Positions 1 through 52,600 of a stretch of DNA of 64,000 nucleotides are shown piece after piece. The translations under genes and the position numbers were made by a program. Source of the stretch: a virus (lineage: Duplodnaviria > Caudoviricetes); IMG/VR virus record IMGVR_UViG_3300037440_000703, positions 1 through 64,000 of that record. One strand, 5' to 3'. Position 1 is the stretch's first letter. Every line of letters begins with the position of its first letter. The notes below the pieces were generated by a model. That model saw only the letters and a list, made by a program, of their open reading frames with translations, searched no databases and was not told the DNA's origin.

Positions 1-2
1 GC

Positions 3-341
3 CCGGCGGCGGGCGCCGCCCGCCGCCCGCACGCCGCCGCCCTCGACGGCAGCTCCCTACGCGGCCACGAGACCACCACCCGCGCCAGCCTCGCCGCGCT
101 CTACGGCCAGCCCCAGCCGGCGTGCCTCACCGACCCCGACGCCGCCACCGCCGAACGGCACGTCGACACCCCGCACGGTCCCGTCGCCGTCTACGACGAC
201 GTGCGGGACACCGCCAACTGGCGCACGGTCCCGGCCGGCGAAGGCGCCGACTGGCACCTCGGCGCCCACTCCGACCAGGCGGCAGCCCACGTCCGGCAGG
301 CGGTCGCCGACCGGCGGAACACCCGCCAGCCCCAGCCCTGA
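3..341 (+). CDS. Phage hypothetical protein, 5'-truncated by the window edge
   Basis: Open frame 3 from the edge to TGA 339-341 (..GSSLRGHETTTRASLAALYGQP..TPHGPVAVYD..WHLGAHS..); not in the ORF track because it has no start; resembles a recurring small phage family. Confidence 0.6.
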   Translation, partial: PAAGAARRPHAAALDGSSLRGHETTTRASLAALYGQPQPACLTDPDAATAERHVDTPHGPVAVYDDVRDTANWRTVPAGEGADWHLGAHSDQAAAHVRQAVADRRNTRQPQP

Positions 342-418
342 CCAGCCCAAACAGTTCTGGCACCCGATGCCAGAACTGTGCCCGAACGAGAAGACGATCA
401 AGATAGGACGGGGAGAAA

Positions 419-799
419 ATGGCCAACAACGCCGCGAAAGGCGCAGCACGCGAAAACCGGGTCCGCCGGCACCTCGAAACCGACGGCTACTGGGTCGTCC
501 GCTCCGCCGCGTCCAAAGGCTCGCTCGACCTGCTCGCCGTCAAACGCCCGCAGATGCTCGGCGTCCAAGTCAAATCCGGCGAGCTCTGGCGGGTCGGCGT
601 CGCCGAACACGACGAGATGTGGGAGCTGTGCCTGCGCATCGGCGCCACCCCCGTCGTCGTCCAGTGCCAGGACCGCAAGCCCGACCTGTGGTGGCGGTCC
701 ACCGGGCCGAAGGCGGGCCGGGTCGGCCGGGCGCTGCCCTACGTGCCGTTCTCGCTCGACGAGGTCGACACGGCGGCCCGGCTCGACCAGGCCGTCTAA
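419..799 (+). CDS. Archaeal-type (Hjc-like) Holliday junction resolvase, PD-(D/E)XK nuclease
   Basis: KGAARENRVRRHLETDGYWVVRSAASKGSLDLLA..VQVKS matches the Hjc pattern; SD GGGGAG upstream. Confidence 0.8.
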   Translation: MANNAAKGAARENRVRRHLETDGYWVVRSAASKGSLDLLAVKRPQMLGVQVKSGELWRVGVAEHDEMWELCLRIGATPVVVQCQDRKPDLWWRSTGPKAGRVGRALPYVPFSLDEVDTAARLDQAV

Positions 800-954
800 A
801 GCCGTGACCTGCGAAACCCCCGTCAAGGGCCCTGACGGCTCCCTACGGGGGTCAGGCCCCCCTCCCGGGTGTCATCTACCCAAGACGTGGGGGACAGGCC
901 GCTGACGGCGAGACGGCAGGGCGAGAAACGGCAAGGAAATCCGATCCTCCGACG

Positions 955-1025
955 GGCCCGCCCCGGTCTAGCTCGTGGGACGAGCGTCGACCGGGGCGGG
1001 CCGGTCGGTGTTCCCGCCCGACCGG
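955..1025. repeat. Stacked inverted repeats (hairpins) in non-coding region
   Basis: GGCCCGCCCCGGTC..GACCGGGGCGGGCC (14-bp arms, 955-1002) enclosing GCTCGT-GGG-ACGAGC, followed by CCGGTCGG..CCGACCGG (1001-1025). Confidence 0.85.
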
Positions 1026-1103
1026 GTTCTGTGGCGCAGTCCGGGCTGCGGCGTGTGTCGCGGGCCGGCTGCCGGCGGGTCGCCCGGCGGTCTGCCCGCC
1101 GCC

Positions 1104-1147
1104 TGTCGGTGCGGTTTTCCAACCGTGTCGGTCCAGTTTTCCAACCG
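1104..1147. repeat. Two tandem 22-bp direct repeats inside an 11-bp inverted repeat
   Basis: TGTCGGTGCGGTTTTCCAACCG (1104-1125) and TGTCGGTCCAGTTTTCCAACCG (1126-1147), 20/22 identical; flanked by CGGTCTGCCCG 1088-1098 and CGGGCAGACCG 1153-1163. Confidence 0.9.
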
Positions 1148-1250
1148 TCTGACGGGCAGACCGGTGGCCGGACCCTGGTCGAGATCGAACGCGAAGGGGG
1201 CGGGCCGCACGGCTGACTAGCGGCGCTAGTCGTGTAATGCTCGGGTCATA

Positions 1251-1637
1251 ATGCGAATCGACCGCGAGCTGCCCTGGACGACCCCCCGCCGGTCCTGGTA
1301 CGACCACGTCACCCCGCCGTGGGGGGAACCGGTCGCCTACCGGTGGCGGCTGGCCGACCGCACCGGCGCGCCGGTGCCCGAGTCTGTTGCGCTGGTCGAC
1401 GCGGCGGTGCCCGTGCTGGACGCGCTGCGGCGCGGTGAAACCGTGCCTGAGCTGGACCGACGGCGGTTCGCGAAGGCGCTGCGCCAGTCGGCGTTCGCGG
1501 ACCGCCGACGCGGCCACCTGTATTCGAAGGGTTCGGACGGGGTGGGCGAGACGTTCCGGTTGGCACGTGCCGCCGAGGGCGCGCTGCGTACCGCCGCCGT
1601 GCTGTTGGAGCTGCGCGGAGTCCGCTTCCGTGACTGA
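1251..1637 (+). CDS. Hypothetical protein
   Basis: 128-aa ORF with typical high-GC codon usage. Confidence 0.65.
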   Translation: MRIDRELPWTTPRRSWYDHVTPPWGEPVAYRWRLADRTGAPVPESVALVDAAVPVLDALRRGETVPELDRRRFAKALRQSAFADRRRGHLYSKGSDGVGETFRLARAAEGALRTAAVLLELRGVRFRD

Positions 1638-1659
1638 CCGTTTTGCTGTTCTAGAGAGC

Positions 1660-1689
1660 TTGGGCCATAGTATTTCGTATGGGTAGAGT
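1660..1689 (+). promoter_or_regulatory. Putative promoter of the FtsK/TraB-like operon
   Basis: TTGGGC-18 nt-TAGAGT in an AT-richer intergenic gap; CCATA..TATGG inverted repeat across the spacer. Confidence 0.4.
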
Positions 1690-1719
1690 GGCGGCGCGGT
1701 CCCGAGGGCGGGCCTTCTG

Positions 1720-3432
1720 ATGGCGACGGCGAAGTCCCCGGCCAAGGGCAAGTCCGCCACGTCCAGCGACCTGCTGGCACCGGCCCGTTTCGTCTGGCGT
1801 GCCGGGACCGAAGGTCTGCGGTACTACCGGACGCACGAGCCGGAGTTCATCGCCGGGGCCGCGCCGCTCTCCCTGTACGCGGTCGCCGCCGACGTGACCG
1901 ACCCGACGTCCGCCTGGTCGCTGTTCGTCGGCGCCACCTCGGCGGCGGGCGCGCTGCGCTACTACGGCAGCTCCGACCACGCCCGCCGCAACCGGGCGAT
2001 GCGGAAGATCGGCCGGGCGCTGGTCGAGTTCGAACTCACCGAACCGTCCGGCGAGGCGCCCCGGATGAAGAACCTGGTGTTCACCCCGGCCGGCCGGAAA
2101 GTCGACCTGCGGGTGCCGCGCCGTTCCACCGCACTGCTGTTCACGAAGTTCGTCCCGTTCCTGGAAGACGAGCTGAACGCGACGGTGCGGGTGGAGCAGA
2201 TCGCCGCGCCGAAGTTCGGCCCGGCCGCCGCGCTGTCGGCTGCGGCCGGGAAGGTGCGCGCCCGGAAGGCCGGCGGCGACGACGGTCCGGCCCCGGTGAA
2301 GGCGCTGGTGCCGCGCGGCGGGGTGCGGCTGACGATCGTGGAACGGGACACGCTGGTCGCCCCGCTGCCCGACCTGTGGCCGGTGCTGGTCCCCGGCCCG
2401 GACGGGCTGATTCCCGCCCGCCGCTGGTACGACCCGCTGCCGATCGCGAAGGACGAGGACGGCAACACCGTCGACCTGTCGTTCGCGAAACGGCCGGCGA
2501 TCCTCGTCGGCGGCGAATCGGGGTCCGGGAAGTCGGTGTTCACGCACGAGGTGGTGGGCGGCTGGCTGCTCGACCCGCGTGCCCGGCTGCTCGGCTGGGA
2601 CGGCAAAGGCGAGCTGGAGTTCACGGTCTACCAGGGTCTGGCCGACGAGATCGTAGGCCCGGACCCGGTGGTCGGTACCGAGCTGTTGAAGCTGGTGCGC
2701 GCCGAGATGACCCGACGCGAGGCGTACCTGCGGTCGATCGGCGAAGAGCAGGCCGACCCCGACGACCCGGAGTGCTACCCGCTGCTGCTCGCACTGGAAG
2801 AGCTGACGGCGTATTCGAAGCACCCCGAGTTCTGGGAGGTGCTGCTCTACCTGCTGGTGAGGGTTCGCGCGGTGAACATGCGCATGATCCTGACGATTCA
2901 GCGCCCGTCGTCGACGTCCATGCCCACCGACGTGCGGGACAACGTGGGCATGAAGGTCGCCCATTCGGTGACGACACCCGAGTCTTCCGACATGTGTCTC
3001 GGGAAGGGGTGGGCGGCGAACGGCTGGAACGCGCAGCAGATCCCGTTGGACGAGTCGGGCCAGTTCGCGGGGATCAACCTGCTGCTGACCGACGGTTCGG
3101 CGGGGCCTCGGCGGACCAGGTCGTGGCCGGTGCTGCGTCCGCAGCGGGAGCTGGTGGTGGCCCGCGCCCGGGAGCTGCGCGGGTTGGCCCAGGCCGGGCC
3201 GCGTGCGATCCCGTTCGCGAAGACACCGTCCGGGCTGGCCGTGCCGGCTCCCCGCGTGCCGGCGAACACGCCCGTCCCGGTGGCCGTCGCACCTGAACCG
3301 AAGCCCGCCGAACCGTCCGCCGCCGACGTCAACCGCGCCCAGGCCGCCCGGCGTGTGAAGCGTAACCGCCCGTCCCGCCTGGAACGGCGGCTGCGCGCCG
3401 TCGACCCGACTGTCCCCCGAGAGGAGTCCTGA
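1720..3432 (+). CDS. FtsK/SpoIIIE-family DNA translocase (actinomycete TraB-like)
   Basis: Walker A ILVGGESGSGKS, DGKGELEF, EMTRR, Walker B LLLALEEL, RAVNMRMILTIQRP; N-terminal hydrophobic segment; Pro/Ala-rich tail. Confidence 0.88.
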   Translation: MATAKSPAKGKSATSSDLLAPARFVWRAGTEGLRYYRTHEPEFIAGAAPLSLYAVAADVTDPTSAWSLFVGATSAAGALRYYGSSDHARRNRAMRKIGRALVEFELTEPSGEAPRMKNLVFTPAGRKVDLRVPRRSTALLFTKFVPFLEDELNATVRVEQIAAPKFGPAAALSAAAGKVRARKAGGDDGPAPVKALVPRGGVRLTIVERDTLVAPLPDLWPVLVPGPDGLIPARRWYDPLPIAKDEDGNTVDLSFAKRPAILVGGESGSGKSVFTHEVVGGWLLDPRARLLGWDGKGELEFTVYQGLADEIVGPDPVVGTELLKLVRAEMTRREAYLRSIGEEQADPDDPECYPLLLALEELTAYSKHPEFWEVLLYLLVRVRAVNMRMILTIQRPSSTSMPTDVRDNVGMKVAHSVTTPESSDMCLGKGWAANGWNAQQIPLDESGQFAGINLLLTDGSAGPRRTRSWPVLRPQRELVVARARELRGLAQAGPRAIPFAKTPSGLAVPAPRVPANTPVPVAVAPEPKPAEPSAADVNRAQAARRVKRNRPSRLERRLRAVDPTVPREES

Positions 3433-3677
3433 TGTCCCGCACGACCTGCCGGACTGCCGCCCGGCGGCTGGCTCGCCCACTGCCCGTCCGCGTCCGCGTG
3501 GCACTGCTCGTCGCGTTCCTGCCAGCGGTCGTCCTCGCGGCCTTCGCCGACTACGGCCAGACCTGGGACGCGGCCGTGGCGGTGCTGTCCGCCGGGGCCG
3601 CCGTCTGGGCCGGCACCACAGCCGTCTCGCTGCTCGCCCGCTACGCCGACCGTCGCACCCGAGAGGAGTCTTCCTGA
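3432..3677 (+). CDS. Small two-TM membrane protein (Spd-like position)
   Basis: TGATG-coupled to the FtsK gene; two hydrophobic helices; SD GAGGAG. Confidence 0.7.
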   Translation: MSRTTCRTAARRLARPLPVRVRVALLVAFLPAVVLAAFADYGQTWDAAVAVLSAGAAVWAGTTAVSLLARYADRRTREESS

Positions 3678-3796
3678 TGTTCGAGATGTTGCCGCTGGTC
3701 GCCGTACCGGTAGCCCTGCTGGCACTGGTGCTGCTGCTGGCCGCCGCCGCCCGGTCGAACTATTCGACCCTGCCGCCGTCCGAAGGCGACGTCTGA
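3677..3796 (+). CDS. 39-aa single-TM protein
   Basis: MFEMLPLVAVPVALLALVLLLAAAARS..; TGATG coupling on both sides; SD GAGGAG. Confidence 0.65.
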   Translation: MFEMLPLVAVPVALLALVLLLAAAARSNYSTLPPSEGDV

Positions 3797-4185
3797 TGCC
3801 CCGACGTAACCGGGCCTGCCCTGGTAACTGCGGCCGTCGGATGACCCGCCTGGAAGCGCTGACGACCAAACGCTGCCACCGGTGCCGGCACAAGCTGACG
3901 GTGGCCGCGCCCGCCGAGTCGACACGCGGCGGGGTGCAGACGTTCACCCAGCTCGCCTTTCTGGGGGAGCCGGCGGCGGTCGGCGGCTGGGCGAAACTCA
4001 ACGGCTTGGAACGGCTGGAAGAGCCTCGCGAGGACGTGGGCTTGACGCCGGCCGAGGTGCGCCGGCAGCTGGCCCCGACCTGCGAGGAACGGGCCGGGGA
4101 CGTGCTGGCCGCGAACCGTGAGCACGTGCTCGGCCTGCTGGCCAGCCAGGCGCAGCAGGAGCTGCTCGCCGCGATCGGCGGGTAG
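3796..4185 (+). CDS. Hypothetical protein with N-terminal CxxxC..CxxC zinc ribbon
   Basis: CPGNC..CHRC; coupled start. Confidence 0.65.
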   Translation: MPRRNRACPGNCGRRMTRLEALTTKRCHRCRHKLTVAAPAESTRGGVQTFTQLAFLGEPAAVGGWAKLNGLERLEEPREDVGLTPAEVRRQLAPTCEERAGDVLAANREHVLGLLASQAQQELLAAIGG

Positions 4186-4223
4186 CGGACCCCGAACGAC
4201 CCGAACCGAAGGGAGCTGGACCG

Positions 4224-4787
4224 ATGACCGCCGAAGCGTGGGCGCCGCAGGTGGTGCCCGGCAACACCCGGCTCAGCCGGCACGAACGCCGCGAGAAGGA
4301 GATGCGCGAACTGTGGGCCGAAGCCCTGGGCCTGCAAGCCCAGGGCGGCAAGGAGGCTCAGGCCGAAGCGGCCGGGCTGTTCCGCGAAGCCAACGACCTG
4401 GGCAGGCTGCTGCCCACCGAGGAGAACCGGGCGTGCGCGCTGACCGGCACGGTCGCGATGGGCCGTGCCCGTGTGCCGGGCACCGACTTCGACGCGGACG
4501 TGGCGATCTCGCACGGCGCCGACGAACGGGGCCGGACCGCGTTGGACCGCTGGGAGGGTGTCGACGGCCCGGTCGAGCGCAACAAGGTGAAGCTCGTGTC
4601 CGACGCCCGGTACCTGCTGGCGAGGCTGGCGCGGACCGACGGCAACCCGAACCGGATGGGCGCGGAGGGTGCGCTGGCCCGGCTGGGTGCGAAGGCCAAC
4701 GACTTCCTGGTGTTCGACTTCCTGCCCGACGGCCGTGTGGTCGTCGAAGTGGAACGGCCGTCTGGGCCGAAGCCCGTGGAGGGCTGA
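4224..4787 (+). CDS. Hypothetical protein
   Basis: 187 aa, SD GGGAG, coding-like composition. Confidence 0.7.
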   Translation: MTAEAWAPQVVPGNTRLSRHERREKEMRELWAEALGLQAQGGKEAQAEAAGLFREANDLGRLLPTEENRACALTGTVAMGRARVPGTDFDADVAISHGADERGRTALDRWEGVDGPVERNKVKLVSDARYLLARLARTDGNPNRMGAEGALARLGAKANDFLVFDFLPDGRVVVEVERPSGPKPVEG

Positions 4788-4790
4788 GCT

Positions 4791-5024
4791 GTGGACCGCG
4801 CGGCGCACAGCGACCCGTTTGACCAGGGGGACTTCGACCCGGAGGCCGTGCTGGACTCGCTCGGCGCGGTCTGGTCGCCGGACTTCGACGCCTTCGCGTC
4901 GGGGGAGCTGCCCGCCAGCGCCTGCCGGTGCGTGCTGTGCGGGACGGCGCCGTGCTCCTGCCCGGAGTTCGGCACCGACGAGTATTTCGCGCTGGTCGAC
5001 CGCCGTCACGGGAGGACGCGGTGA
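4791..5024 (+). CDS. Small acidic Cys-rich protein
   Basis: CRCVLCGTAPCSCP motif. Confidence 0.6.
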   Translation: MDRAAHSDPFDQGDFDPEAVLDSLGAVWSPDFDAFASGELPASACRCVLCGTAPCSCPEFGTDEYFALVDRRHGRTR

Positions 5025-5146
5025 GGGCCCGCCTGGCCGCCGCCGTCGTGGTGACACTGGCCGGCGTGCCGCCGCCGCCGGCCCCGTACCTGCTGCTGGC
5101 CGGCGGCGTGATGCTGTTCGGCCGCAGCCGACGGGCGGTGCGCTGA
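5021..5146 (+). CDS. Small hydrophobic protein
   Basis: GTGA/TGATG coupling; hydrophobic. Confidence 0.5.
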   Translation: MRARLAAAVVVTLAGVPPPPAPYLLLAGGVMLFGRSRRAVR

Positions 5147-5370
5147 TGGTGTTCCCCGCAGCCGACCGGCCGCGTTCTGGGCGGGGCGAGCCGTGCCAGT
5201 TCCTGCGCGGGGTGCGCCGTGAGGCGTTCACCTCGGTCGGCACCGGGCTGGTGTCGGGTGCGGGTTCACTGCTGGCCCGGCTGCGGCCGGACCCGGCGGC
5301 GGTGGACGCCGAACTGCTGCCCGTGGGCTGGACACCCGGACTGGACGACGACGACGAGGAGGTGGCGTGA
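5146..5370 (+). CDS. Hypothetical protein
   Basis: Coupled ORF ending DDDDEEVA. Confidence 0.5.
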   Translation: MVFPAADRPRSGRGEPCQFLRGVRREAFTSVGTGLVSGAGSLLARLRPDPAAVDAELLPVGWTPGLDDDDEEVA

Positions 5371-5576
5371 TGTTCGACGACGAGTTCGACGACGAAGGCG
5401 AAGTGGAGGTCGAGCCGACGTGGGCCGGGGCGTTCGGCGAGGCCGTGCGTGACGTGGCGGCCCTCGCGGGGGAGAGCCCGAAGGCCGCTGCCGCTCTCGC
5501 CGCTTACGGGGTGACGGCGGTCGGTGCTGTCGGGTATCTCGGCGTGTCGGCCGCGACAGCGCTTCTGGGGGCGTGA
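5367..5576 (+). CDS. Small protein with C-terminal hydrophobic helix
   Basis: SD GGAGG, coupled. Confidence 0.6.
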   Translation: MMFDDEFDDEGEVEVEPTWAGAFGEAVRDVAALAGESPKAAAALAAYGVTAVGAVGYLGVSAATALLGA

Positions 5577-5797
5577 TGTTCGACTGGTTGAAGGGCACGG
5601 GCGGGGACGACGTCGGCGAGCCGTTCACGCTGGCCGACGAGCACCGGCACCGTGTGGCCGACGGCAAGGCGAAGGTGGAACTGTTCCGACAGGCCGCCGA
5701 CGAGTCGCCGTTCCTGAGCCGCGCGGAACGGCAGGCGCGGCACGCGGAGCTGGACGGCTTTCAGGCCCGGGCAGACCGGGGGGAGTGGCTGTGGTGA
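5573..5797 (+). CDS. Hypothetical protein
   Basis: Coupled ORF. Confidence 0.6.
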   Translation: MMFDWLKGTGGDDVGEPFTLADEHRHRVADGKAKVELFRQAADESPFLSRAERQARHAELDGFQARADRGEWLW

Positions 5798-6048
5798 GGC
5801 CAGGTCCGGCGGCCTGCGACGACGGCACCCGTGCGGCGACCGCGCTGCTGACGGTACTGGTCGGCCTGTCCGTGCCGTTCGCCGCCGCGCTGGGCTTGAC
5901 CGACCAGCCGGTGGCCGCTGCCGGCGGCGGGCTGTTCGCCGTCGGCTGCGTGCTGGCCGTGCTGGCCGTGCGGGCGGTGGACCGTGATCCGACAAACGGC
6001 CCGCTGTTCCACCCGGGCGGTTCCGGGCCGTCCGGTGGCGGCCTGTGA
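5794..6048 (+). CDS. Two-TM membrane protein
   Basis: ALLTVLVGLSVPFAAALG and GGGLFAVGCVLAVLAV. Confidence 0.6.
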   Translation: MRPGPAACDDGTRAATALLTVLVGLSVPFAAALGLTDQPVAAAGGGLFAVGCVLAVLAVRAVDRDPTNGPLFHPGGSGPSGGGL

Positions 6049-6362
6049 TGGACGTGGGCAGGCTGGCGGCGAGCTTGGGCAGGTCGTTGGACGTGGTCCC
6101 GACCGTGCTGGGTGACCGGGAGTTGTACGTGCGGCTGTTCCGGGACGGGCCTGCCACCGACTGGCAGGTGTGCCGGGTCGACGACGTGGTGACCGGTTCG
6201 GGGGCGCCGGTCGCGGCGGCGTTCACGTTGCCGAACGGTGACTTGTCGTACCGGTTGGCCGCCGCCGAATGGGCTGCGCCGCTGGCTGTGGAGGAAAGGC
6301 ACCCGAAGGGGTTCGAGTGGCCGGACGCGTCCGGCTCCGACGACGACGAAGACCAAGACTGA
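6045..6362 (+). CDS. Hypothetical protein
   Basis: Coupled ORF. Confidence 0.6.
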   Translation: MMDVGRLAASLGRSLDVVPTVLGDRELYVRLFRDGPATDWQVCRVDDVVTGSGAPVAAAFTLPNGDLSYRLAAAEWAAPLAVEERHPKGFEWPDASGSDDDEDQD

Positions 6363-6381
6363 CCGATTCGAAGGAGATCCG

Positions 6382-6639
6382 TTGAACGTCCATCAGCTTC
6401 GCGAACGTCTACTCGACGAGCTTGACCCTGCCGCCGCGATGGTGGTGCCCGGTGGGGGTGTTCCCCGTGAACTGTTCGTCCAGTTGAAAGGTGTGGGGGA
6501 CAGTTTCGACGACGCTGTCGACCGGGCGGGCACTCTGGTCCGCGAGGCTGGTGCGCCGGTTGTCGCGATGTTCGACAACCTGGATTTGCAGACGGCGAGT
6601 TTCATGCTGGCCGGTTCTGAATGGCCGGACGCCGGCTGA
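6382..6639 (+). CDS. Hypothetical protein (TTG start)
   Basis: SD AAGGAG before TTG. Confidence 0.6.
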   Translation: MNVHQLRERLLDELDPAAAMVVPGGGVPRELFVQLKGVGDSFDDAVDRAGTLVREAGAPVVAMFDNLDLQTASFMLAGSEWPDAG

Positions 6640-6848
6640 TGGGGGTCTCCGCTGACGCTGTCCTCGGCTATCTGACGGACCGCCTGGCTGGCCGTAGCCA
6701 CCTGTACGACGAGGAGTCCGGCGAGCTGGTGGCGATGCTCCACGTCGACCATGCGGACGACGGGCTGGTGGTCGCGACCGTGCCGGACGTCTACCCGTAC
6801 AACGTGCTGGGCCGGTTCCGGGTGAGCGTGGAAAAAGTGGAGGACTGA
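6639..6848 (+). CDS. Hypothetical protein
   Basis: TGATG coupling. Confidence 0.6.
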   Translation: MGVSADAVLGYLTDRLAGRSHLYDEESGELVAMLHVDHADDGLVVATVPDVYPYNVLGRFRVSVEKVED

Positions 6849-6849
6849 G

Positions 6850-7077
6850 GTGAGCATCCTGTCTCGCGCATGGGACGCGACGGTCGTGCGACTGGCGGAC
6901 CGCTTCGAGGCCGAGAACGTAGAGGCTGTGCAGTCGTTCGAGCGTGCGACCGGTACGCCGCACTGGTGCCGGCTGCCCGACGGGAACGGTCACCGCATCG
7001 GCGACGAGAACGACAGCGAACTGTGGACGGCCGGCTGGCGTGCCGCCGCTGCCAGTCCGACGGAGCTGGACCGGTGA
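6850..7077 (+). CDS. Hypothetical protein
   Basis: SD GGAGG. Confidence 0.55.
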   Translation: MSILSRAWDATVVRLADRFEAENVEAVQSFERATGTPHWCRLPDGNGHRIGDENDSELWTAGWRAAAASPTELDR

Positions 7078-7294
7078 CCCGTGCGGTGGGTTGGCGTCAG
7101 GGGCGGGCGCCGCTTCCGGCCGGTAGTTCGGCGCCCGCAGGAGTTGACCCGTCGGCCCGTGCTCTCCTGTCCCCGATCGCTGGATCAGAGATTACAGCTA
7201 AGCGAAAGGTCCAGGACGCGGTCTTGTCGACGCGGACCGACGTCGTGTGGTCCGACCGCCGGGGCTGGCATGTGTCGGCCGGTGCGGGGGCGTA

Positions 7295-7501
7295 GTGGAC
7301 AACACCCAGGTCGAACGGATGTGGGGCTTGGCGTTGGAGATGGACGCCGCCGGGTGCCCGCTGGTGGCGTCCGAGGCCGCCTACGTGGCGTCGGACCTTG
7401 CGGCCGAGGTGCCGCTTGCCGAGCGGGGGCCTGTCGCCGCCGTGCTCGTCGAGATGCGTCTCGGGATGGACGCCGGTTCGACGCGAGAGTTGGGGGGCTG
7501 A
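7295..7501 (+). CDS. Hypothetical protein
   Basis: Coupled GTG start. Confidence 0.5.
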   Translation: MDNTQVERMWGLALEMDAAGCPLVASEAAYVASDLAAEVPLAERGPVAAVLVEMRLGMDAGSTRELGG

Positions 7502-7502
7502 C

Positions 7503-7754
7503 GTGACGGGCTACGAGGACACTGCCCGGCACGAGGCGGCCCACGTGGTGGTGGCCGGGGCGCTGGGCGCGTCCGACCTTTCCGCCGTTGTGTACGACCG
7601 CTGGGATGCGCTGGCGGTGTTGCGGGACGCGCAGGGCCTGCCGCTGATGCCGGCCTGCCGGCCTGCTGGACGGCCGGGACGCCGGGGACGGCGACGTCCC
7701 GCACCCGCTTGGGGTGGTGTCTACTGCCCCGGCGGTGGCGACGGCGATGACTGA
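7503..7754 (+). pseudogene. Short HEXXH (M41/FtsH-like) metallopeptidase fragment
   Basis: TARHEAAHVVVAGALG at the N-terminus, but only 83 aa with a low-complexity tail. Confidence 0.4.
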
Positions 7755-8283
7755 AGTCGTCGCGGTCCTGGACTTCGCCTGGTCGGTGCCCGCCTGGTCG
7801 GTGGGCACGGTCTCCGACCTGACCCGGCTGCCCGCCTGGCTGGTCTGGGTGCTGGCCGTACTGTGGCTGTACGGCCATTTCGACCGGCCCGTCGAGTTCG
7901 CTGCCCGCCGGGCGCGGATGCGCCGTCACGGGTTCGCCGGCTACTCCGACTACGTCCGCTCCACGCTGTGGCGGCAGCGTGCCGACCGCTGGTACGCCGT
8001 CCACGGCAAGCCGCCGTGCTGCGTGTGCGCCGCCGGCCGCGACCCGGGCCGGGTGTTTCACCTGCACCACGTCGACCGGCTGCGTGCCGGGTCGGGCCGG
8101 GAACAGGACCGTGACCTGGTGCCGGTCTGCGCCCGCTGCCACAGCCTGGCCCACAAGGTGGAACGCAGGCTGTACGCGTTCGGTTTGACGTTGCGGGCGT
8201 CGACCTGGCTGGTGCGGCATGCTGGCCTGCCTGTCCGGACGGTGCGGCGACTGGCCCGCCGGGTGCAGGGGGTGCGTCGGTGA
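7747..8283 (+). CDS. HNH endonuclease with N-terminal TM helix
   Basis: YSDYVRSTLW..CCVC..HLHH..DLVPVCARCHSLAH; LPAWLVWVLAVLWLY upstream. Confidence 0.75.
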   Translation: MTEVVAVLDFAWSVPAWSVGTVSDLTRLPAWLVWVLAVLWLYGHFDRPVEFAARRARMRRHGFAGYSDYVRSTLWRQRADRWYAVHGKPPCCVCAAGRDPGRVFHLHHVDRLRAGSGREQDRDLVPVCARCHSLAHKVERRLYAFGLTLRASTWLVRHAGLPVRTVRRLARRVQGVRR

Positions 8284-8840
8284 CGACCACCGAATGGCAT
8301 CAGCTGGGCTTGGTGTGGCGGGGTGTGCGGACCGGCCGGCCGCCGACCGTCGCCGAGCAGCGGATCGCCCGTGTCGACCAGGATCGCAGGCGCGCCGAAC
8401 TGGGACTATCGTCCAGGCACTATGACCCTGACAGTCCGACCGGTGTCGAGGTGACCGTCGACCCGGAGAACGCCGGCCCGAAGTTCACCGGCGGCAGCCT
8501 GCCGCGACGGCGGCGGGCGTTGAAAATGGACGAACGTCCGTTCCGCCGGGCGGTGGACGAATGGCTGGCCCGGGGCGGGTGGGCTGCCGGCGAGCAGATG
8601 AAGGCGAGTGTCGCCGTCGAGTGGGTCAGGTCGGACGACCCGCGTAAGGAGTCGCGGGAGAAACGGCTGCTGGTGAACCGCTGGGTGGCGGAGTTGAAGG
8701 CCCGTGGTTGGACGGGAAAACTGGTGACCACCAGGTTCGTGAACTACGACGACGGCCGTCAGCGGCTGTTCTGGTGGTCGACGCCGGCCGCCGTGGCGTT
8801 GGGTAGGCCGCCGGAACCGCCGAAGGGAAGACTGCTTTAA
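8280..8840 (+). CDS. Hypothetical basic protein
   Basis: 186 aa, coupled; last gene before the strand convergence. Confidence 0.65.
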   Translation: MTTTEWHQLGLVWRGVRTGRPPTVAEQRIARVDQDRRRAELGLSSRHYDPDSPTGVEVTVDPENAGPKFTGGSLPRRRRALKMDERPFRRAVDEWLARGGWAAGEQMKASVAVEWVRSDDPRKESREKRLLVNRWVAELKARGWTGKLVTTRFVNYDDGRQRLFWWSTPAAVALGRPPEPPKGRLL

Positions 8841-8853
8841 CGCTTCCCCACGG

Positions 8854-9780
8854 CTAATAACGCGGAATATCACTGTCGCTGGTCAGGGACTCGTTGGACT
8901 CGTTGAGCACGACGGCGGCCAGCATGGCGCGGTGACCACGGTTGGTCGGGTCGAAGCCGGTCCAGTCGAAGTAGTCCATCGCGTCGACCGCGCGGGCGAC
9001 CTCGGGCTTCCACGTCGACGGGTCTCCCCAGTCGTCGGGGTCCGAGTCGTCGCCGTCCGGCCGGTTGCACAGGCAGTCGGTGGCGCACGGGACCGTGCAC
9101 GCCGCGTCGTTGACCGCCGCCCGGTATTCGGGGCAGGCGCACGACGCGACCTCGCAGGCCATCGGCGACCAGGGATTGTGGTCGGCCTCGATGTGCCCGC
9201 ACACACATCGAGGCGGTCCGGGTTCGCTGTCGCTACCTGTGGGAATGCCGAACTCAGGTCTGGCATCGGGAACCTCCGCGATTGTGGTGCCGCACTGGTC
9301 GCACCAGCCGGCCGGATGACGGGTGAACGGCACGCCTTCCAGCGCCGCCCACATCAGGCACGGCTCGCACCACGAGGTGGCCCCGTACGGCGAGTAGGCG
9401 AACCTGTGGCCGTCTTCAAGGCAGGCCCCGTCCCCGAGGCTGGACGTGACGGAGCATCCGCGTGTAACAAGCAGCGCCGCCGCTTCGAGCAGAAGGCCCG
9501 TTCCGTCGAAAGCCCGGTCCTGCCAGCGGTGCATCGCCGCGACCTGGCGACGCAGCTCCGCGACAAGGTCCGTCCACCGTTGCCGTTCCAGTTCGACAGC
9601 CGGCTTCATGCCCCGGTCGAGCCGGCCGGCGAAATACGGCACGACCGCGTCCAGTACGGCGGCGGTCGGCGGAAGGGACTCGCCCGCCGGGACGCGCAGC
9701 GCCAGCTCGACGGCCGCCCGCAGGTCTTCGTCCTCTCGCATCTCGCGGGCCACGACGAACTCCATCACCTTGTCAGCCAT
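8854..9780 (-). CDS. Hypothetical multi-segment protein with several Cys motifs
   Basis: 308 aa; CEPC, CDQC, CVCGH..C..C.C, C..DCLC. Confidence 0.7.
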   Translation of the reverse strand: MADKVMEFVVAREMREDEDLRAAVELALRVPAGESLPPTAAVLDAVVPYFAGRLDRGMKPAVELERQRWTDLVAELRRQVAAMHRWQDRAFDGTGLLLEAAALLVTRGCSVTSSLGDGACLEDGHRFAYSPYGATSWCEPCLMWAALEGVPFTRHPAGWCDQCGTTIAEVPDARPEFGIPTGSDSEPGPPRCVCGHIEADHNPWSPMACEVASCACPEYRAAVNDAACTVPCATDCLCNRPDGDDSDPDDWGDPSTWKPEVARAVDAMDYFDWTGFDPTNRGHRAMLAAVVLNESNESLTSDSDIPRY

Positions 9781-9985
9781 CGAAGGTCACCTCCACGAGG
9801 CAGCAGTGGGTTTCCCCGGGCCGTACAGTGCTCAGGTCGAAGACGTTGCCGCCGCACAGGCCGGCGCCGTTTTCCAGCGGGTGCACGCAGACGAAACCGT
9901 GACGGCCGCTGCCGTCCGCGTCCACGGGCAGGGGTGACGGCTGCCAGTCGGGGCTGTGCTCGACGAGCACACGGCGGCTAGCCAT
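9773..9985 (-). CDS. Small Cys-containing protein
   Basis: Overlap-coupled ORF. Confidence 0.5.
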   Translation of the reverse strand: MASRRVLVEHSPDWQPSPLPVDADGSGRHGFVCVHPLENGAGLCGGNVFDLSTVRPGETHCCLVEVTFDG

Positions 9986-10313
9986 CGGCCGGCCGTCCGC
10001 GATGCACGCTCTGACGGCCGGCGGCCGCCTCGAACGCCGCCCGGGCCGCCCGCCACGTCCGGTACGGGCTGGTGAACCGACCGGACACCGGGTCGACCGA
10101 AGGGTCGGTGTAGCACACGGCGTGCCGGACGCCAGGCTCGTTGAACGTGAAACTGTGTACCGGTTGCCGGCATCCGTTGTGGACACCGCCGCACAGCTCG
10201 GTGTCGCGCCAGTAGCCGGGCACGTCGAACGGCTCGAGCCGTTCCTGTGGGATGTTCGGGTGGTTGAGCCGCAGCCAGTCGACTGGCGGGCCGTAGGTGT
10301 CGGGGTCACTCAT
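9978..10313 (-). CDS. Hypothetical protein
   Basis: MSDPDTYGPP.., coupled. Confidence 0.6.
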   Translation of the reverse strand: MSDPDTYGPPVDWLRLNHPNIPQERLEPFDVPGYWRDTELCGGVHNGCRQPVHSFTFNEPGVRHAVCYTDPSVDPVSGRFTSPYRTWRAARAAFEAAAGRQSVHRGRPADG

Positions 10314-10707
10314 CGGACGCCACCGCCCGCAGCGTCTTGACGACCCCGAAACCCGGGGCCGCCCACTGCTCGACCTCCGGAATGTCACTGGACGACCCAT
10401 TCCAGTAGACGCGCGGCCCGAAAATGTGTTCCTTCTCGTAGGCGCGGAACTCGTCGTCGTCGAGGCCGTGCGTTTCGAGCTGCACGACGGCACCGGAAAC
10501 CGTGTGGGTGAAGTCGAAAATCCAACGCCCGTCATCTCCCGGTGCGGGCACGCCGGGGAGTACGAGTTCGACGTCGCGGATCCCGTCGGCGACCAGGCGG
10601 CCGTACCATTCGTGGGCGTTCGCCTCCGCACCCGCGTAGTCGTTCGCCCACCCGACCCCGGACGCCGCGACAGTACCCGAACCAGGATTGATCAGAATGC
10701 CGGTCAT
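10306..10707 (-). CDS. Hypothetical protein
   Basis: MTGILINPG.., SD GAAAGGA. Confidence 0.7.
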   Translation of the reverse strand: MTGILINPGSGTVAASGVGWANDYAGAEANAHEWYGRLVADGIRDVELVLPGVPAPGDDGRWIFDFTHTVSGAVVQLETHGLDDDEFRAYEKEHIFGPRVYWNGSSSDIPEVEQWAAPGFGVVKTLRAVASDE

Positions 10708-11090
10708 ACGGCGCCGTTCCTTTCGGTCTCGAAGCGGTCGGCTGGCTGGTCTCCGTCGGCGCTGCCCATGGCGTGGGCGACCGGGTCGAACGCCCGCAGC
10801 TCGGCGAGGGTCATACCGCGCGGGTCGACTCCGACGGCGCACGCCTGGGCGGCACGGTCCACGAAGGTCCGCCAGCGGTCGTCGAGAACAGGGCCGATCA
10901 TCGCCCGGTAGCCTGCGGCGGTGGCCTGCACGTACTCGCCGCCGAACAGCGCGTCGGAGGTGCGGGCGGAGACGCCGAGGGCTTCGGTGATCCCGCCGAC
11001 GGTGTAGACCTCGGCGGTGCTGCGCGGTTCCAGGCCGGCGCCCAGGCCCGGCCTCGGGATTTCGGTCTCGTAGACCTCGTCGGCATTCAC
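10704..11090 (-). CDS. Hypothetical protein
   Basis: SD GAAAGGA, coupled. Confidence 0.65.
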   Translation of the reverse strand: MNADEVYETEIPRPGLGAGLEPRSTAEVYTVGGITEALGVSARTSDALFGGEYVQATAAGYRAMIGPVLDDRWRTFVDRAAQACAVGVDPRGMTLAELRAFDPVAHAMGSADGDQPADRFETERNGAV

Positions 11091-11623
11091 AGGACACCAG
11101 TCCTTTCCGCCTCAATCGCCAGCAGCCCGTCGCGGTCGCCCGTCCGGTGCGCCTCGACGTCCCAACCGGCACCAGGCGCCGCACGGCGCAGCAGGACAGC
11201 CACCGGGCGGATCGTCTTCTGCGCCTGGTCGTAGGCGGCGCGCGCCGACAGCTCGTCGTCAGCCCAGACCTCGGCGTAGTTGGCCGGGATGAACCCTTCC
11301 GCCAGTCGCTGCTGAACCCACGGCGACGTCGAGTCCAGCCAGGCGACCGCCCACAGGCATTGAACCCGGCGGGCGGCCTCGACCTCGCGTGCCTTCGCCG
11401 CGCACGGCGGGCAGTTCTCCGACGCCTTCTCCCATGCGACCCGGTCGGCCTGCAGCTCGGCGAAAATCTCACGGTGGGTCTTGAGCTGGCCGTCCGCGTT
11501 CTTGTTGAACGGACTCATTGTCTGCGAGAACGTCTTCTGCCGCTTGAGGCGTTTGTTGCAGCCGGCGCACTTAACGTTCTTTGTGCCCCACACGTTGATC
11601 GGGTCGTAACGGTGGACGGTCAT
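11087..11623 (-). CDS. Hypothetical protein with CxxC..CxxC
   Basis: CAGC..TFSQTMSPFNKNADG..CPPC; SD GAAAGGA. Confidence 0.7.
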   Translation of the reverse strand: MTVHRYDPINVWGTKNVKCAGCNKRLKRQKTFSQTMSPFNKNADGQLKTHREIFAELQADRVAWEKASENCPPCAAKAREVEAARRVQCLWAVAWLDSTSPWVQQRLAEGFIPANYAEVWADDELSARAAYDQAQKTIRPVAVLLRRAAPGAGWDVEAHRTGDRDGLLAIEAERTGVL

Positions 11624-11934
11624 ACGGCACCAGTCCTTTCGCTCTCGAAACGGTCGGTGACGTGCTGGGGGATAACCCCGGCGTTCAGATACTTCGGATA
11701 CGCCGAACGTTGGAGGACGGGCAGCCAGCGTTCGTACTCGTCCTCACGTGCCTCTTCCAGTGCTTCGGCGACCCGGACGGCGGCAACCTGCTCGGCGTGC
11801 ACCGCGAGCTGTTCGCCCAGCGCTTCGACCTGGTCGCGGGGGCCGACGAACCGGCCGTCGCCGACCGGCAGCTTCCACAGCGGGCCGTCGGCGTCGGGAA
11901 GGTGGGCGGGAAGGTGGAGGGGTCGGGTGGTCAC
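11620..11934 (-). CDS. Hypothetical protein
   Basis: SD GAGGAG, coupled. Confidence 0.6.
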   Translation of the reverse strand: MTTRPLHLPAHLPDADGPLWKLPVGDGRFVGPRDQVEALGEQLAVHAEQVAAVRVAEALEEAREDEYERWLPVLQRSAYPKYLNAGVIPQHVTDRFESERTGAV

Positions 11935-12131
11935 GGGGTGGTCTCCTCGAGGTCTCGGATGTCGGCTTGCCGTCCGGTGTCCCAGAACTGCCCTGCCTGC
12001 TGTTCGGGGGTGCACGGGTGGGTGTCCTGCCCGCCGACCAGCCGGCGGTAGACGGCGACACGGTCGCCACCTCCGAGGCCGAGCCGGGTTTGCAGGTAGG
12101 CGTCGTCCCAGCACTGTTCGCAGGCGGTCAT
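11931..12131 (-). CDS. Small CxxC protein
   Basis: MTACEQCWDDAY..CTPEQQAG; SD AAGGAG. Confidence 0.65.
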   Translation of the reverse strand: MTACEQCWDDAYLQTRLGLGGGDRVAVYRRLVGGQDTHPCTPEQQAGQFWDTGRQADIRDLEETTP

Positions 12132-21724: not shown

Positions 21725-22000
21725 GTGACCACGGACCGCACCGACCACGTCGTCGACCTGATCGACAGAGCTGTCGGCAAGGCCGCGCGCGCCGCCACCT
21801 GCCGCTGCGAACGCCACGCCGACCACCCGTGCGAACGTGCGATCACCCAGGAAGACCTGCGCTGCGACGTGTGCCGGGCGTCCGGCTGCACCGAGATCAC
21901 GATCGGCAGGAACACCAGCTACCACGCCCATGTCACGTTCGGGATCGACGTAGGCCGGTTCGACGTAGGCCCGATCGTCACCCGAGTCGTCCTGAAATGA
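21725..22000 (+). CDS. Small Cys-rich protein coupled to terL
   Basis: GACAAT-N6-GTG; CRC..H..C..CDVC. Confidence 0.55.
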   Translation: MTTDRTDHVVDLIDRAVGKAARAATCRCERHADHPCERAITQEDLRCDVCRASGCTEITIGRNTSYHAHVTFGIDVGRFDVGPIVTRVVLK

Positions 22001-23499
22001 CCGTCGCCCCGCCGGTCGCGTGGGTGGACCGGGCCGACGCGGGGCTGGCGCAGGCGTGGGCCAACCGGCGGCAGCGCCGGGAATGGCGCCGCGACCCGAA
22101 CGCCTGGGCGCGGCACCGGGGCATCGAACTGTGGTCCGAACAGCGCAACATCCTCAAGGCCGCCGCGCAGCACGACCGTGTAGCTGTCCGTAGCGCCCAC
22201 GACACCGGCAAGTCCTTTTCCATGGCCGTGCTCGTCGCGTGGTTCCTCGACACCCACCCGCCCGGTCAGGCGCGGGTCGTCACCACCGCCCCCTCCCAAG
22301 ACCAGGTCCGGGGCATCCTGTGGAACGAGATCAACGCGCTGTGGGAGAAACACCCCGACCTGCCCGGCCGCATCAACCAGACCGAGATCTGGATCGGCAA
22401 CTACCAGGCGGCCGTCGGCCGCAAATCCTCCGACTACCGGCCGGCGTCGTTCTCCGGGTTCCACGCCCGCTACATCCTCATCGTCGTCGACGAAGCCGAC
22501 GGCATCCCGGCCGCGTTGTGGGGGGCGATCGACACGCTGGCCACCAACGCCGGGGCGAAGATCGTGGCCATCGGGAACCCGGACGACCCGACCAGCGAGT
22601 TCCGGCGGCGCCAGTCAGACCAGGGCTTCGGCGGCAAATACTTCACGATCAAGATCCCGGCGTGGGTCACCCCCAACTTCACCGGCGAAGACGTCTCCGA
22701 GCTGCTGCACGACGTGCTGCTCTCTACCGGCTGGGTGGAGGAGAAGCGGGTCGCGTGGGGCGGGGCGCCGGACGTCGACCCGGACGACCCGAGGTGGGCG
22801 CCCGACCACCCGTTCTGGTCGAGCAAAGTCGAAGCCGAGTACCCGTCCGAGTCGGCGAACGCCGTCATCCGGGTGGCCGACCTGCTGCGCGCCCGGCGGG
22901 TAGAGCGGGACGACTCGCTGGCCTCCCGCCGCAACGACCGCCACGGCGTGGTGCTGGGCGTCGACCTCGCCGGTTCCGAACGGGGCGACGAGTCGGTGGC
23001 CCGCGCCCGGCAGGGCAACCGGCTGCTCGGCGAGAGCCGCACCCGGACGGCGGACCCGGACGAACTGGAAAACTGGCTCGTCGCTGCCGTGGACACGTTC
23101 GCCGCGACGACGGCGCAGATCGACGCGGACGGCATCGGCCACGCCTACCCGTCGGCGCTGCGAAGACGCCGGCCGAAAGTGTCGGCGGTGCCTGTCCGCA
23201 GCGCGGTGCAGGCGTCCGACCCGAAGGTGTACGTCAACAAGCGGGCCGAGATGTGGTGCCACCTGGGTGACCTGCTGCGGCAGACCGGTGACGACCAGCT
23301 CGACTTTTCGGCGTTGGACGACGAGACGGCGGCACAGCTGCTGACGGTACGCCGGGCGCCGCCGGTGAAAGGCCGGATCCTGATCGAGTCGAAAGACGAG
23401 ATCCGCAAGCGGATCGGGCGGAGTCCTGACGGCGGCGACAGCGTCGTCTACTGCTTTTACACGGCGCCGAAGCCGCGCATCCGCGTGCTGGGCGCCTGA
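21997..23499 (+). CDS. terL: Terminase large subunit
   Basis: VAVRSAHDTGKS Walker A, IVVDEADG Walker B, IGNP coupling motif, LGVDLA..GDESV, IDADGIG, GRSPDGGDS nuclease motifs. Confidence 0.93.
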   Translation: MTVAPPVAWVDRADAGLAQAWANRRQRREWRRDPNAWARHRGIELWSEQRNILKAAAQHDRVAVRSAHDTGKSFSMAVLVAWFLDTHPPGQARVVTTAPSQDQVRGILWNEINALWEKHPDLPGRINQTEIWIGNYQAAVGRKSSDYRPASFSGFHARYILIVVDEADGIPAALWGAIDTLATNAGAKIVAIGNPDDPTSEFRRRQSDQGFGGKYFTIKIPAWVTPNFTGEDVSELLHDVLLSTGWVEEKRVAWGGAPDVDPDDPRWAPDHPFWSSKVEAEYPSESANAVIRVADLLRARRVERDDSLASRRNDRHGVVLGVDLAGSERGDESVARARQGNRLLGESRTRTADPDELENWLVAAVDTFAATTAQIDADGIGHAYPSALRRRRPKVSAVPVRSAVQASDPKVYVNKRAEMWCHLGDLLRQTGDDQLDFSALDDETAAQLLTVRRAPPVKGRILIESKDEIRKRIGRSPDGGDSVVYCFYTAPKPRIRVLGA

Positions 23500-32840: not shown

Positions 32841-33214
32841 GCGACCACCGGATGGCCGGACGTACCGGCGGCGCCAGCGGCGTGGCCACCTTCTGCTCCT
32901 GCGGCCTCGCCTACTGGGCTACCAGCGTCGGCGAGGCCGACGACCGCTGGCAGGCCCACCGCGACGAACAGACGACAGCCGGACCGGTCGAGGTGACCGT
33001 CGTCGACGTCCGACCCGGCGACACGCTCGTCCTGCGCTGCGACCGCCTGCTGTCCGACGACGAGTACGACGACCTTCAAGCACGCTTCCGCGCCCAGTAC
33101 GGACCGGACGTGAAAATCGTGGTCCTCGAAGGCGGTATGCGCCTGGAAGGAATAGTCGGCGGACTGTTCGCCGATCACGTCAGCCCGACCCCGGCCGGCG
33201 AGGACCCGACGTGA
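32837..33214 (+). CDS. Hypothetical protein
   Basis: SD GGAGG; coupled to portal. Confidence 0.6.
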   Translation: MSDHRMAGRTGGASGVATFCSCGLAYWATSVGEADDRWQAHRDEQTTAGPVEVTVVDVRPGDTLVLRCDRLLSDDEYDDLQARFRAQYGPDVKIVVLEGGMRLEGIVGGLFADHVSPTPAGEDPT

Positions 33215-52220: not shown

Positions 52221-52600
52221 TCGTGGCAGACGCCCGTCTCCGCTCGGAGCTGGCGCTCTGCCACGGCTGGGGTATCCCGCACTCCCGTTTCCTGTCCTGG
52301 CCCGAACTCGACCAGGACAAGGCGTTGGCCTACCACGCCTACGACCTGACGGTGTGCAAAGGCTGCGGCACCCGCGAGGCCGAGTGGGACCCGGCGTCCG
52401 GCGGGGACCGGTTCGCCTACGAGGCGGCCGAATGCTCCTGCCCCGGCTGCCAGGTGCGCGGCGACCTGGAACGGCGGCTGCGGGACTCCGGCGTGGAGGT
52501 GTCCGGCCGGTACGTGGTGCTGCTGCCCCGCGCGGAAGCGGAACGGCGCCGCGAGCTGGCCGCCGAACGACGCGCCCGGCGTGAGACGGCAGGCGTCTGA
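52217..52600 (+). CDS. Tail assembly chaperone C-terminal part (T)
   Basis: ELALCHGWGIPHSRFLSW..DQDKALA..CKGCGT..EW..CPGC. Confidence 0.75.
   Translation: MIVADARLRSELALCHGWGIPHSRFLSWPELDQDKALAYHAYDLTVCKGCGTREAEWDPASGGDRFAYEAAECSCPGCQVRGDLERRLRDSGVEVSGRYVVLLPRAEAERRRELAAERRARRETAGV

Follow-up and report, generated by a model that had tools for sequence, protein, structure and literature searches.

A predicted DNA pump related to conjugative TraB/Tra translocases in the early region of a putative temperate siphovirus

In mycelial actinomycetes, plasmids are moved between and along hyphae by a single FtsK-like pump. If the same were true of tailed phages, naked viral DNA could pass through a colony, avoiding receptor-based resistance and extracellular hazards, and models of phage spread and gene flow for Streptomyces-like bacteria would change. 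This question is raised by a 64,000-nt stretch of DNA (the window), which comprises bases 1–64,000 of the 103,461-bp IMG/VR virus record IMGVR_UViG_3300037440_000703, rated 100% complete by CheckV. Near its start lies a gene for an FtsK/SpoIIIE-type ATPase (1720–3432, plus strand), which a first-pass annotation of the sequence had read, together with its neighbours, as a TraB/Spd/clt module for conjugal DNA transfer. Here, we ask where this motor comes from, which parts of a transfer module accompany it and what it might do for the phage. The general phenomenon of a TraB-type pump on a phage is already known, with pZL12 as an experimental precedent, and the present case is an atypical variant: a pump in a phage without the standard partners would either help to define the minimal requirements of transfer or point to a different, intracellular use of the motor. 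The useful leads that it provides are a new sister family of Tra-like motors, a 77-amino-acid (aa) partner protein and a 12-copy array of 8-mers. Coordinates refer to the window unless they are given as genome coordinates of the whole record.

The motor and its relatives

The ATPase gene, called like the others by the GC content of third codon positions (GC3; 0.91 for this gene), encodes a predicted double-stranded DNA (dsDNA) translocase of the FtsK/TraB superfamily with a length of 570 aa. The protein matched the Pfam family FtsK_SpoIIIE (PF01580; E 1.9e-5, 24.6 bits with a cut-off of 24) and, over residues 239–432 only, PHROG 1358, 'FtsK/SpoIIIE-like protein' (E 3.5e-24, 85.5 bits). In an alignment with pSVH1 TraB and FtsK, the Walker A and QRP motifs and the catalytic Walker B Glu were all intact. 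Near relatives were restricted to eight proteins of 51–76% identity among 5.8 billion, all of them metagenomic. An exhaustive HMMER search returned only seven representatives below E 1e-30, and nothing near turned up when the close-family alignment was searched against viral, genome and metagenome contigs. The catalytic motifs are invariant across this family, in which Walker B reads EE compared with DE in relatives. On sequence grounds, the ATPase is probably an active, hexameric dsDNA pump. Across the eight family members, more than 150 positions are invariant; they run the full length and take in the N-terminal domain as well as the basic motif at the C-terminus, a pattern of purifying selection under which the ATPase appears to be evolving.

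An AlphaFold2 model built from a 49-row alignment had a mean predicted local distance difference test score (pLDDT) of 82.9. It consists of N-terminal helices (residues 19–103), two of which are moderately hydrophobic, a confident alpha/beta domain (residues 110–183), a RecA-type motor (residues 200–490, pLDDT >95) and a disordered Pro/Ala-rich tail (residues 490–570, pLDDT mostly <65) with one short helix (534–546). The tail ends in a basic segment, the Arg and Pro positions of which are invariant in the family. The first-pass annotation had described a complete FtsK/SpoIIIE ATPase with a hydrophobic N-terminus. The intact ATPase was confirmed, but the N-terminus is only moderately hydrophobic: window means for residues 45–85 were ∼0.6–1.2 by hand calculation, which is under the threshold of 1.6 applied throughout in a simple Kyte–Doolittle hydropathy scan for membrane helices (19-residue window). 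The best Foldseek matches of the model were the motor domains of TcpA (pCW3) and FtsK (E 1e-19 to 1e-18 over ∼400–445 columns), although sequence identity to these motors is only 14–20%. TcpA acts within the larger Tcp conjugation apparatus, and the gamma domain of FtsK reads KOPS sites.

The annotated TraB-like character of the ATPase was supported by sequence searches and by phylogeny. The protein is 31% identical to pSVH1 TraB over 273 aa (E 4e-24), and its best NCBIfam model is plasmid_TraB. A tblastn search matched 50 plasmid records, 44 of them from Streptomyces, in which the genes are annotated as FtsK/SpoIIIE and are mostly TraB-like (best E 3e-21). Cultured actinophages also encode FtsK-fold ATPases in their early regions, for example gp193 of Schatzie (Mycobacterium, cluster J) and gp144 of the Streptomyces phage EhyElimayoE, which share PHROG 1358 with the window protein. 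However, these are distant, with 16 mycobacteriophage matches near E 5e-6 as the only tblastn matches in cultured phages, EhyElimayoE at E 0.05 and just four Streptomyces records at E ≤ 1.

Two trees of the motor domain, a quick one with 80 rows and a careful one with 40, were mutually consistent; they were drawn without actinobacterial chromosomal FtsK and without EccC, and their unlabelled rows are best matches to the query. The query family was a well-supported unit (100/99) and formed one clade with the Tra clade and EhyElimayoE gp144 (100/98, stem length 1.14), outside which were E. coli FtsK, Schatzie gp193 and more distant viral FtsK-like proteins. The Tra clade (96/92) contains the TraBs of pSVH1, pFP11 and pSG5, chromosomal Tra proteins, among them those from integrative and conjugative elements of actinomycetes (AICEs), and TraB-like genes of viral contigs, and the query family is sister to it, not inside. 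Among the chromosomal relatives, three belong to AICEs of the textbook type, where Tra is followed by RepSA and then an integrase. A constraint that placed the query family with FtsK and the mycobacteriophage type cost 50 log-likelihood units and was rejected in an approximately unbiased (AU) test, for which the groups were named after inspection of the tree (p = 8.6e-5). The alternative grouping with non-conjugative FtsK-like phage ATPases, which the first-pass annotation had left open, is therefore rejected for E. coli FtsK and the mycobacteriophage type, and with its distant matches an ordinary actinophage FtsK-like gene of that type is ruled out. In addition, the query and the TraB/Tra proteins have in common three signatures that are not in FtsK (GGE.G.GKS, a conserved R–D pair and SD..LG.G.A..G[YW].A). 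We assign the ATPase to a small, metagenome-only sister lineage of the actinomycete conjugative TraB/Tra translocases. EhyElimayoE gp144 (L113:2144–3445), from a cultured phage of 186 kb, lies inside the same superclade on a very long branch, and the conjugative lineage may also be the source of some of the FtsK-like genes in cultured Streptomyces phages.

Compared with the characterised TraBs of pSVH1, pSG5 and pFP11, the phage protein has the FtsK-type motor, the TraB-specific signatures and a common superclade, but differs in several respects. The plasmid proteins are ∼740–770 aa long compared with 570 aa in the phage, where the N-terminal region is shorter and unrelated; the phage protein is also without their C-terminal clt-recognition domain, has no C-terminal similarity to pSVH1 TraB and falls outside the clade of the characterised TraBs. 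The Tra proteins of pSAM2-type AICEs are alike in superclade, in length class and in having a short tail at the C-terminus with no evident DNA-recognition domain, whereas the phage ATPase represents a separate sister family that sits amid phage replication genes.

A phage genome with a variable early region

Siphovirus morphogenesis genes were confirmed, as annotated, on the same molecule as the ATPase. Family matches identified the terminase large subunit (21997–23499), the portal (33211–35448), the protease (39039–40217) and an HK97-type capsid (40175–41620), and a 1642-aa open reading frame (ORF) is a candidate tape measure by size and position only (52600–57528). The best cultured match of the portal was that of Streptomyces phage Dagobah (35% identity); against the plasmid collection the best identity was <30%, with no near relative. 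A check of the remaining record for replication, partition and integration genes, as the first-pass annotation had suggested, yielded a serine integrase (genome 80,067–81,833, beyond the window) near a Gp3-like recombination directionality factor (RDF). There was no match in the whole 103-kb genome to ParB_N, ParA (AAA_31) or RepSA, and the control genomes of the RepSA search were likewise unmatched. An integrase with an RDF and virion genes, without ParA, ParB, RepSA or DUF2637, indicates an integrating temperate siphovirus and neither a plasmid-prophage nor a prophage with an adjacent AICE. The host is probably a high-GC, mycelial actinomycete.

Replication genes precede the ATPase: a DnaN clamp and two SF2 helicases beyond the window, an AAA_25 helicase-like gene (genome 101,547–103,088) and a 126-aa Hjc-type Holliday-junction resolvase (419–799, plus strand; Pfam PF01870, E 8.1e-6, 26.1 bits with a cut-off of 21.1), which is part of the phage early or replication region. 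The upstream genes connect to the window across the ends of the record (window 1–341 and genome 103,387–103,461). Both ends lie inside a run of ∼25 C that interrupts one Pro-rich ORF, and therefore they probably join; the break is probably an artefact of assembly, in a genome that is circular or circularly permuted, rather than a true terminus. AICEs are compact units of Int, Rep (RepSA, RepAM or Prim-Pol) and Tra (PMC3218068). In contrast, the phage has no RepSA match and no AICE layout, and its serine integrase is at 80 kb beside the RDF. The possibility raised by the first-pass annotation, that positions 1–9 kb are a separate AICE or host island beside a prophage, is ruled out by the GC content, which is even along the entire molecule (67–74%), by the flanking phage replication genes directly upstream, by the absence of RepSA, ParA and ParB matches and by the lack of a second integrase near the ATPase region.

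A capsid search identified 67 related viral contigs. The closest phage relative (G006) has 99,865 bp with direct terminal repeats, a capsid that is 91% identical and most virion proteins at ∼83–96% identity. At the same position it carries an entirely different early region of 18 kb (L181–L185). The early region is, by this comparison, a hot spot of gene replacement between genomes with nearly identical structural genes. An FtsK_SpoIIIE ORF was present in one (G009) of the 10 relatives tested, and it is of the unrelated mycobacteriophage type. G009 is a 52.6-kb provirus with a capsid 56% identical to that of the window, and its FtsK-like gene (L186; 28,403–28,846, minus strand) encodes a protein with a hydrophobic N-terminal region and 36% identity to Schatzie gp193; the C-terminal stretch may be a DNA-binding helix-turn-helix. 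Since G009 carries the other FtsK type, pumps were acquired at least twice in the phage lineage. FtsK-fold pumps would therefore appear to be sporadic accessories in these phages, acquired more than once.

Small neighbouring genes and repeats

The operon begins with a 128-aa ORF (1251–1637, plus strand, GC3 0.87) that ends 82 nt before the ATPase; it had no Pfam, PHROG, NCBIfam or PADLOC match and no usable Atlas match. Downstream of the ATPase, at least 10 small ORFs occupy 3432–6362 on the plus strand and overlap by TGATG or GTGA. The first encodes 81 aa with two predicted membrane helices (3432–3677) and shares a TGATG with the stop of the ATPase, which makes its product a candidate membrane partner of the motor. 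It is followed, each time through a TGATG (at 3677 and 3796), by a 39-aa ORF with one predicted membrane helix (3677–3796, GC3 0.85) and a 129-aa ORF (3796–4185) that has two Cys pairs at the N-terminus, resembling a zinc ribbon, and no family match. Then come a soluble 187-aa protein (4224–4787), a Cys-rich 77-aa protein (4791–5024) and six overlapping small ORFs (5021–5146, 5146–5370, 5367–5576, 5573–5797, 5794–6048 and 6045–6362), with four-base GTGA-type overlaps at 5021, 5367, 5573 and 5794. Most overlapping starts are preceded by GGAG-type ribosome-binding sites. Within this group, ORF 5367–5576 has one C-terminal predicted helix and ORF 5794–6048 has two, and ORF 5021–5146 is hydrophobic yet under the helix threshold. 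The annotated translational coupling of small proteins to the ATPase is thus borne out by real overlaps, and four of the small ORFs exceed the simple hydropathy threshold. None of the downstream ORFs scanned had a convincing Pfam, PHROG or NCBIfam match.

The 77-aa protein is the only neighbour with evidence, from conserved gene order, of a functional link to the ATPase. Homologues with 43–66% identity were found in eight IMG/VR loci, and in six of these a TraB-clade ATPase lies 0.7–3.3 kb away on the same strand. This linkage is real evidence of a common ancestry, and perhaps a common function, between part of the window operon and TraB cassettes, and it makes the protein a new candidate partner that accompanies TraB-type pumps in several (pro)phages. 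The AlphaFold2 model of the protein is small and helical (pLDDT 75). Its unnamed family of Cys-rich proteins of 56–77 aa, with the core C.LC...PC.CPEFG..EYF, recurs beside TraB-clade ATPases, on the same strand, in (pro)viral contigs (L013:9215–9406, L014:5286–5456, L188:7980–8189, L189:2947–3159, L191:7977–8183 and L192:7980–8168) and corresponds to no Pfam or PHROG family.

Upstream of the operon, the annotated repeat- and hairpin-rich non-coding tract (800–1250) was recovered. It contains no ORF with coding-type GC3 and holds a hairpin with 20-nt arms (949–968/989–1008, 95% complementary), two tandem 22-mers (1104–1147, 91% identical) and a 13-bp palindrome (1217–1229) beside AT-rich −10-like hexamers. 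Its folding beats 100 of 100 shuffles (z = −3.75). The tract matched no Rfam family and no consensus promoter or terminator, and a search for RNA genes within 1–12 kb gave no tRNA and no credible Rfam match. The tract probably regulates the operon starting at 1251. We rejected the tract as a clt, and with it the clt-like cis repeats of the first-pass annotation: the hairpin and two 22-mers are there, but no 8-mer array, although the k-mer cluster script used here does find such arrays on plasmids. In its controls, GACCCGGA was recovered in five copies directly after pSVH1 traB, and arrays were also recovered directly 3′ of the TraB genes in pFP11, pSG5, L014 and L008.

The one outstanding array of the genome is a different one, on the far side of the record junction and ∼1.9 kb upstream of the ATPase. 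It directly follows the AAA_25 gene and consists of 11 direct copies and 1 inverted copy of the motif [GC]CAGAC[AG] within 204 bp (genome 103,099–103,309; L003:19099–19309), compared with ∼0.2 copies expected by chance. The copies are spaced by 10–15, 21–23 or 44 bp, and after the array come a GC hairpin and an AT-rich stretch that contains the AAGATC motif three times. As a sequence arrangement, the array and the AT-rich stretch form a probable replication origin; possibly, the array is a displaced clt or docking site for the pump.

Cell-to-cell transfer and other roles for the pump

Our favoured explanation, held tentatively, is a TraB-type pump in trimmed form, which would carry the dsDNA of the phage across membranes or septa of the hyphae, or between cells. 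This role is suggested by the relatedness to TraB/Tra, the intact motifs, the overlapping, spd-like membrane ORFs, the 77-aa partner and the precedents of phage-borne cassettes and pZL12. Either the N-terminal helices of the ATPase or the co-translated mini membrane proteins (3432–3796 and 5367–6048) would keep it at the membrane, and the Cys-rich partner would assist it. The pump would then drive phage dsDNA, as it replicates, through hyphal cross-walls or into another hypha in contact with the first, and infection or lysogeny could spread without virions. Within this proposal, the DNA substrate, the location at the membrane and any transfer from cell to cell are what we infer; virion-independent spread of the phage DNA is a plausible proposal.

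Other phages provide the closest parallels. Further IMG/VR records pair an HK97 capsid gene with a TraB-clade gene, and thus carry the pump on one molecule with capsid, tail and lysis genes. One such record is rated 100% complete. In a 53-kb genome (G005, L015), in which the capsid gene spans the record ends, the TraB-like gene is accompanied by two GntR genes and DUF2637, and a serine integrase and an endolysin are also encoded. In another (G001, L013), the TraB-like gene follows a large membrane protein without a Pfam match, and a NUDIX/HTH gene stands at the end, as in AICEs. In these genomes of 35–53 kb, the cassette lies between the integrase end and the lysis and tail genes. The 77-aa Cys-rich partner is common to the window, L013 and L014. 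However, the phage-borne cassettes keep GntR, DUF2637 and the 8-mer array (the array in the two checked, L014 and L008), and the window is without these. For pZL12, taken here from literature descriptions, the likeness is in virion genes and a tra-type gene on one molecule. A paper that cites Zhong et al. 2010 reports that the plasmid-phage pZL12 requires a tra gene for conjugal transfer; pZL12 is a ParAB plasmid-prophage. In contrast, the window phage has a serine integrase with an RDF and no ParA or ParB match.

Several results weigh against a transfer role. For the motor itself, the plasmid_TraB model scored 31.3 bits and did not pass its equivalog cut-off of 800. An AU test of how the query family, gp144 and the Tra clade branch, which bore only on the position of gp144, rejected no arrangement (p = 0.34). 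Since gp144 belongs to a cultured phage, membership of the superclade need not mean conjugation. The clt-recognising domain of TraB is reportedly a winged helix, and the AlphaFold2 model of the ATPase has no C-terminal winged helix; as the first-pass annotation had already remarked, none is recognisable, and a disordered tail with one short helix is predicted instead. TraB C termini recognise clt (PMC4447253). The gene is also dispensable for the phage, since the closest phage relative has no FtsK-like gene; indeed, apart from one partial match, that genome has no counterpart of the region from genome 101,550 through the junction to window position ∼12,400.

Further negative results concern the partners. 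In pSVH1, pFP11 and pSG5, a divergent GntR gene lies upstream of spd–traB, ∼2.4–2.5 kb before traB, and the small spd genes, SpdB2 (DUF2637) and TraB are followed by an 8-mer array. Neither the GntR gene nor SpdB2 nor the 8-mer array was found at the phage locus. DUF2637/SpdB2 (PF10935) had no match in the whole genome at E ≤ 1, and the family is present in the phage-borne cassette L015. The only GntR gene is ∼14 kb from the ATPase and divergent from a Bro-N antirepressor gene, with none adjacent to the motor. The k-mer cluster script found no 8-bp repeat array in window 1–12,000, neither in the tract nor after the ATPase. As in spd operons, for which PMC4447253 describes the organisation, small overlapping genes, some of them for predicted membrane proteins, are present. 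Beyond this likeness, the downstream ORFs had no tblastn match to the pSVH1, pFP11 and pSG5 loci, and the 81-aa ORF matched only itself among 5.8 billion proteins. The 187-aa ORF had just three relatives in that collection, none of which (0/3) is on contigs of the nearest ATPase relatives. The Spd-like label of the small membrane ORFs accordingly lacks homology behind it, which is weak negative evidence because Spd proteins are too diverse for homology calls (PMC4447253). The annotation as a TraB/Spd/clt module therefore fails for DUF2637, an adjacent GntR gene and the 8-mer array, and a complete module of this kind is, from sequence, only partly supported.

A fuller version of the transfer role would be a so far undescribed, minimal conjugation-type apparatus made up of a short TraB-lineage pump, with a conserved basic tail instead of the winged helix, lineage-specific mini membrane proteins in place of SpdB2 and the Cys-rich partner. 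The pump would dock on the 12-copy array, and the apparatus would move the 103-kb genome through cross-walls or to neighbouring hyphae. As a whole, we consider this version unlikely.

The rival that survives best, although it too strikes us as rather unlikely, places the ATPase in intracellular DNA metabolism. In that case, branched or concatemeric replication products would be cleared, separated or resolved before packaging by the motor together with the helicases and the Hjc resolvase, and the small ORFs downstream would be unrelated phage ORFans. The setting suits such a role, because replication and recombination genes surround the motor: DnaN, an SF2 helicase and the AAA_25 gene are upstream and Hjc is two genes away, and the iteron-like, origin-like array with its AT-rich stretch is ∼1.9 kb upstream. 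The downstream ORFs are also not kept alongside the ATPase, and the FtsK-like genes of Streptomyces phages are not described as conjugative; indeed, such genes are common in actinophages in literature descriptions, without function demonstrated. However, the motor is specifically related to conjugative Tra and not to the FtsK-like proteins of cultured phages, and the closest phage relative replicates without the ATPase. Intracellular DNA metabolism also leaves the coupled membrane mini-proteins and the recurrent 77-aa partner unexplained.

Exclusion of other DNA, or host takeover, is improbable. Here, the ATPase and the membrane mini-proteins would block or expel incoming DNA, or would exploit TraB toxicity against host growth. 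In favour of this, PHROG 1358 is in the category 'moron, auxiliary metabolic gene and host takeover', relatives vary in this accessory gene, and plasmid traB is toxic without its repressor (PMC4447253). PADLOC also gave a weak match to mad8, an FtsK-like component of MADS (E 4.9e-11), but that match spans only the generic ATPase core, PADLOC detected no further component of a known defence system nearby, and no toxin-type or sensor domains were found with Pfam and NCBIfam. As the generic mad8 match is its sole support, we rejected a known defence system. It is very improbable that the region is what remains, decaying and now functionless, of a transfer cassette that entered the phage by recombination from an AICE or plasmid: the canonical partners are missing (SpdB2, Kor, clt and the winged helix-turn-helix) and the region is absent from the sister phage, but the ORF is intact with coding-type GC3, every catalytic motif is kept and the invariant positions of the eight family members (51–76% identity, >150 positions) reflect purifying selection.

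Among the remaining genes near the ATPase, the first-pass annotation had noted a membrane-anchored HNH nuclease downstream. The gene (7714–8283, plus strand) encodes 189 aa. Its HNH identity holds, with a match to PHROG 144 HNH (E 5.3e-6), a sub-cut-off Pfam HNH match (19.5 bits, cut-off 21.4) and a CxxC...HH...CxxCH motif in the translation; the membrane anchor is less secure, as the hydrophobic N-terminal stretch is short of the membrane-helix threshold.

Two observations were made elsewhere in the genome. The sole GntR gene encodes a GntR/UTRA regulator (genome 91,189–91,968, minus strand) and is divergent from the Bro-N antirepressor-type gene (pair at genome 91,189–93,189) across an AT-rich spacer of 230 bp. 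This pairing looks like a phage immunity switch, and the two genes are a candidate lysogeny switch that uses a GntR repressor. The similarity of the regulator to TraR (31% identity) is only at the family level, and we rejected it as a Kor repressor, since the Bro-N pairing makes an immunity repressor likelier. Directly before the Gp3-like RDF, a 672-aa ORF with a LAGLIDADG_3 domain (genome 73,385–75,403) could be an intein-containing or homing-endonuclease gene.

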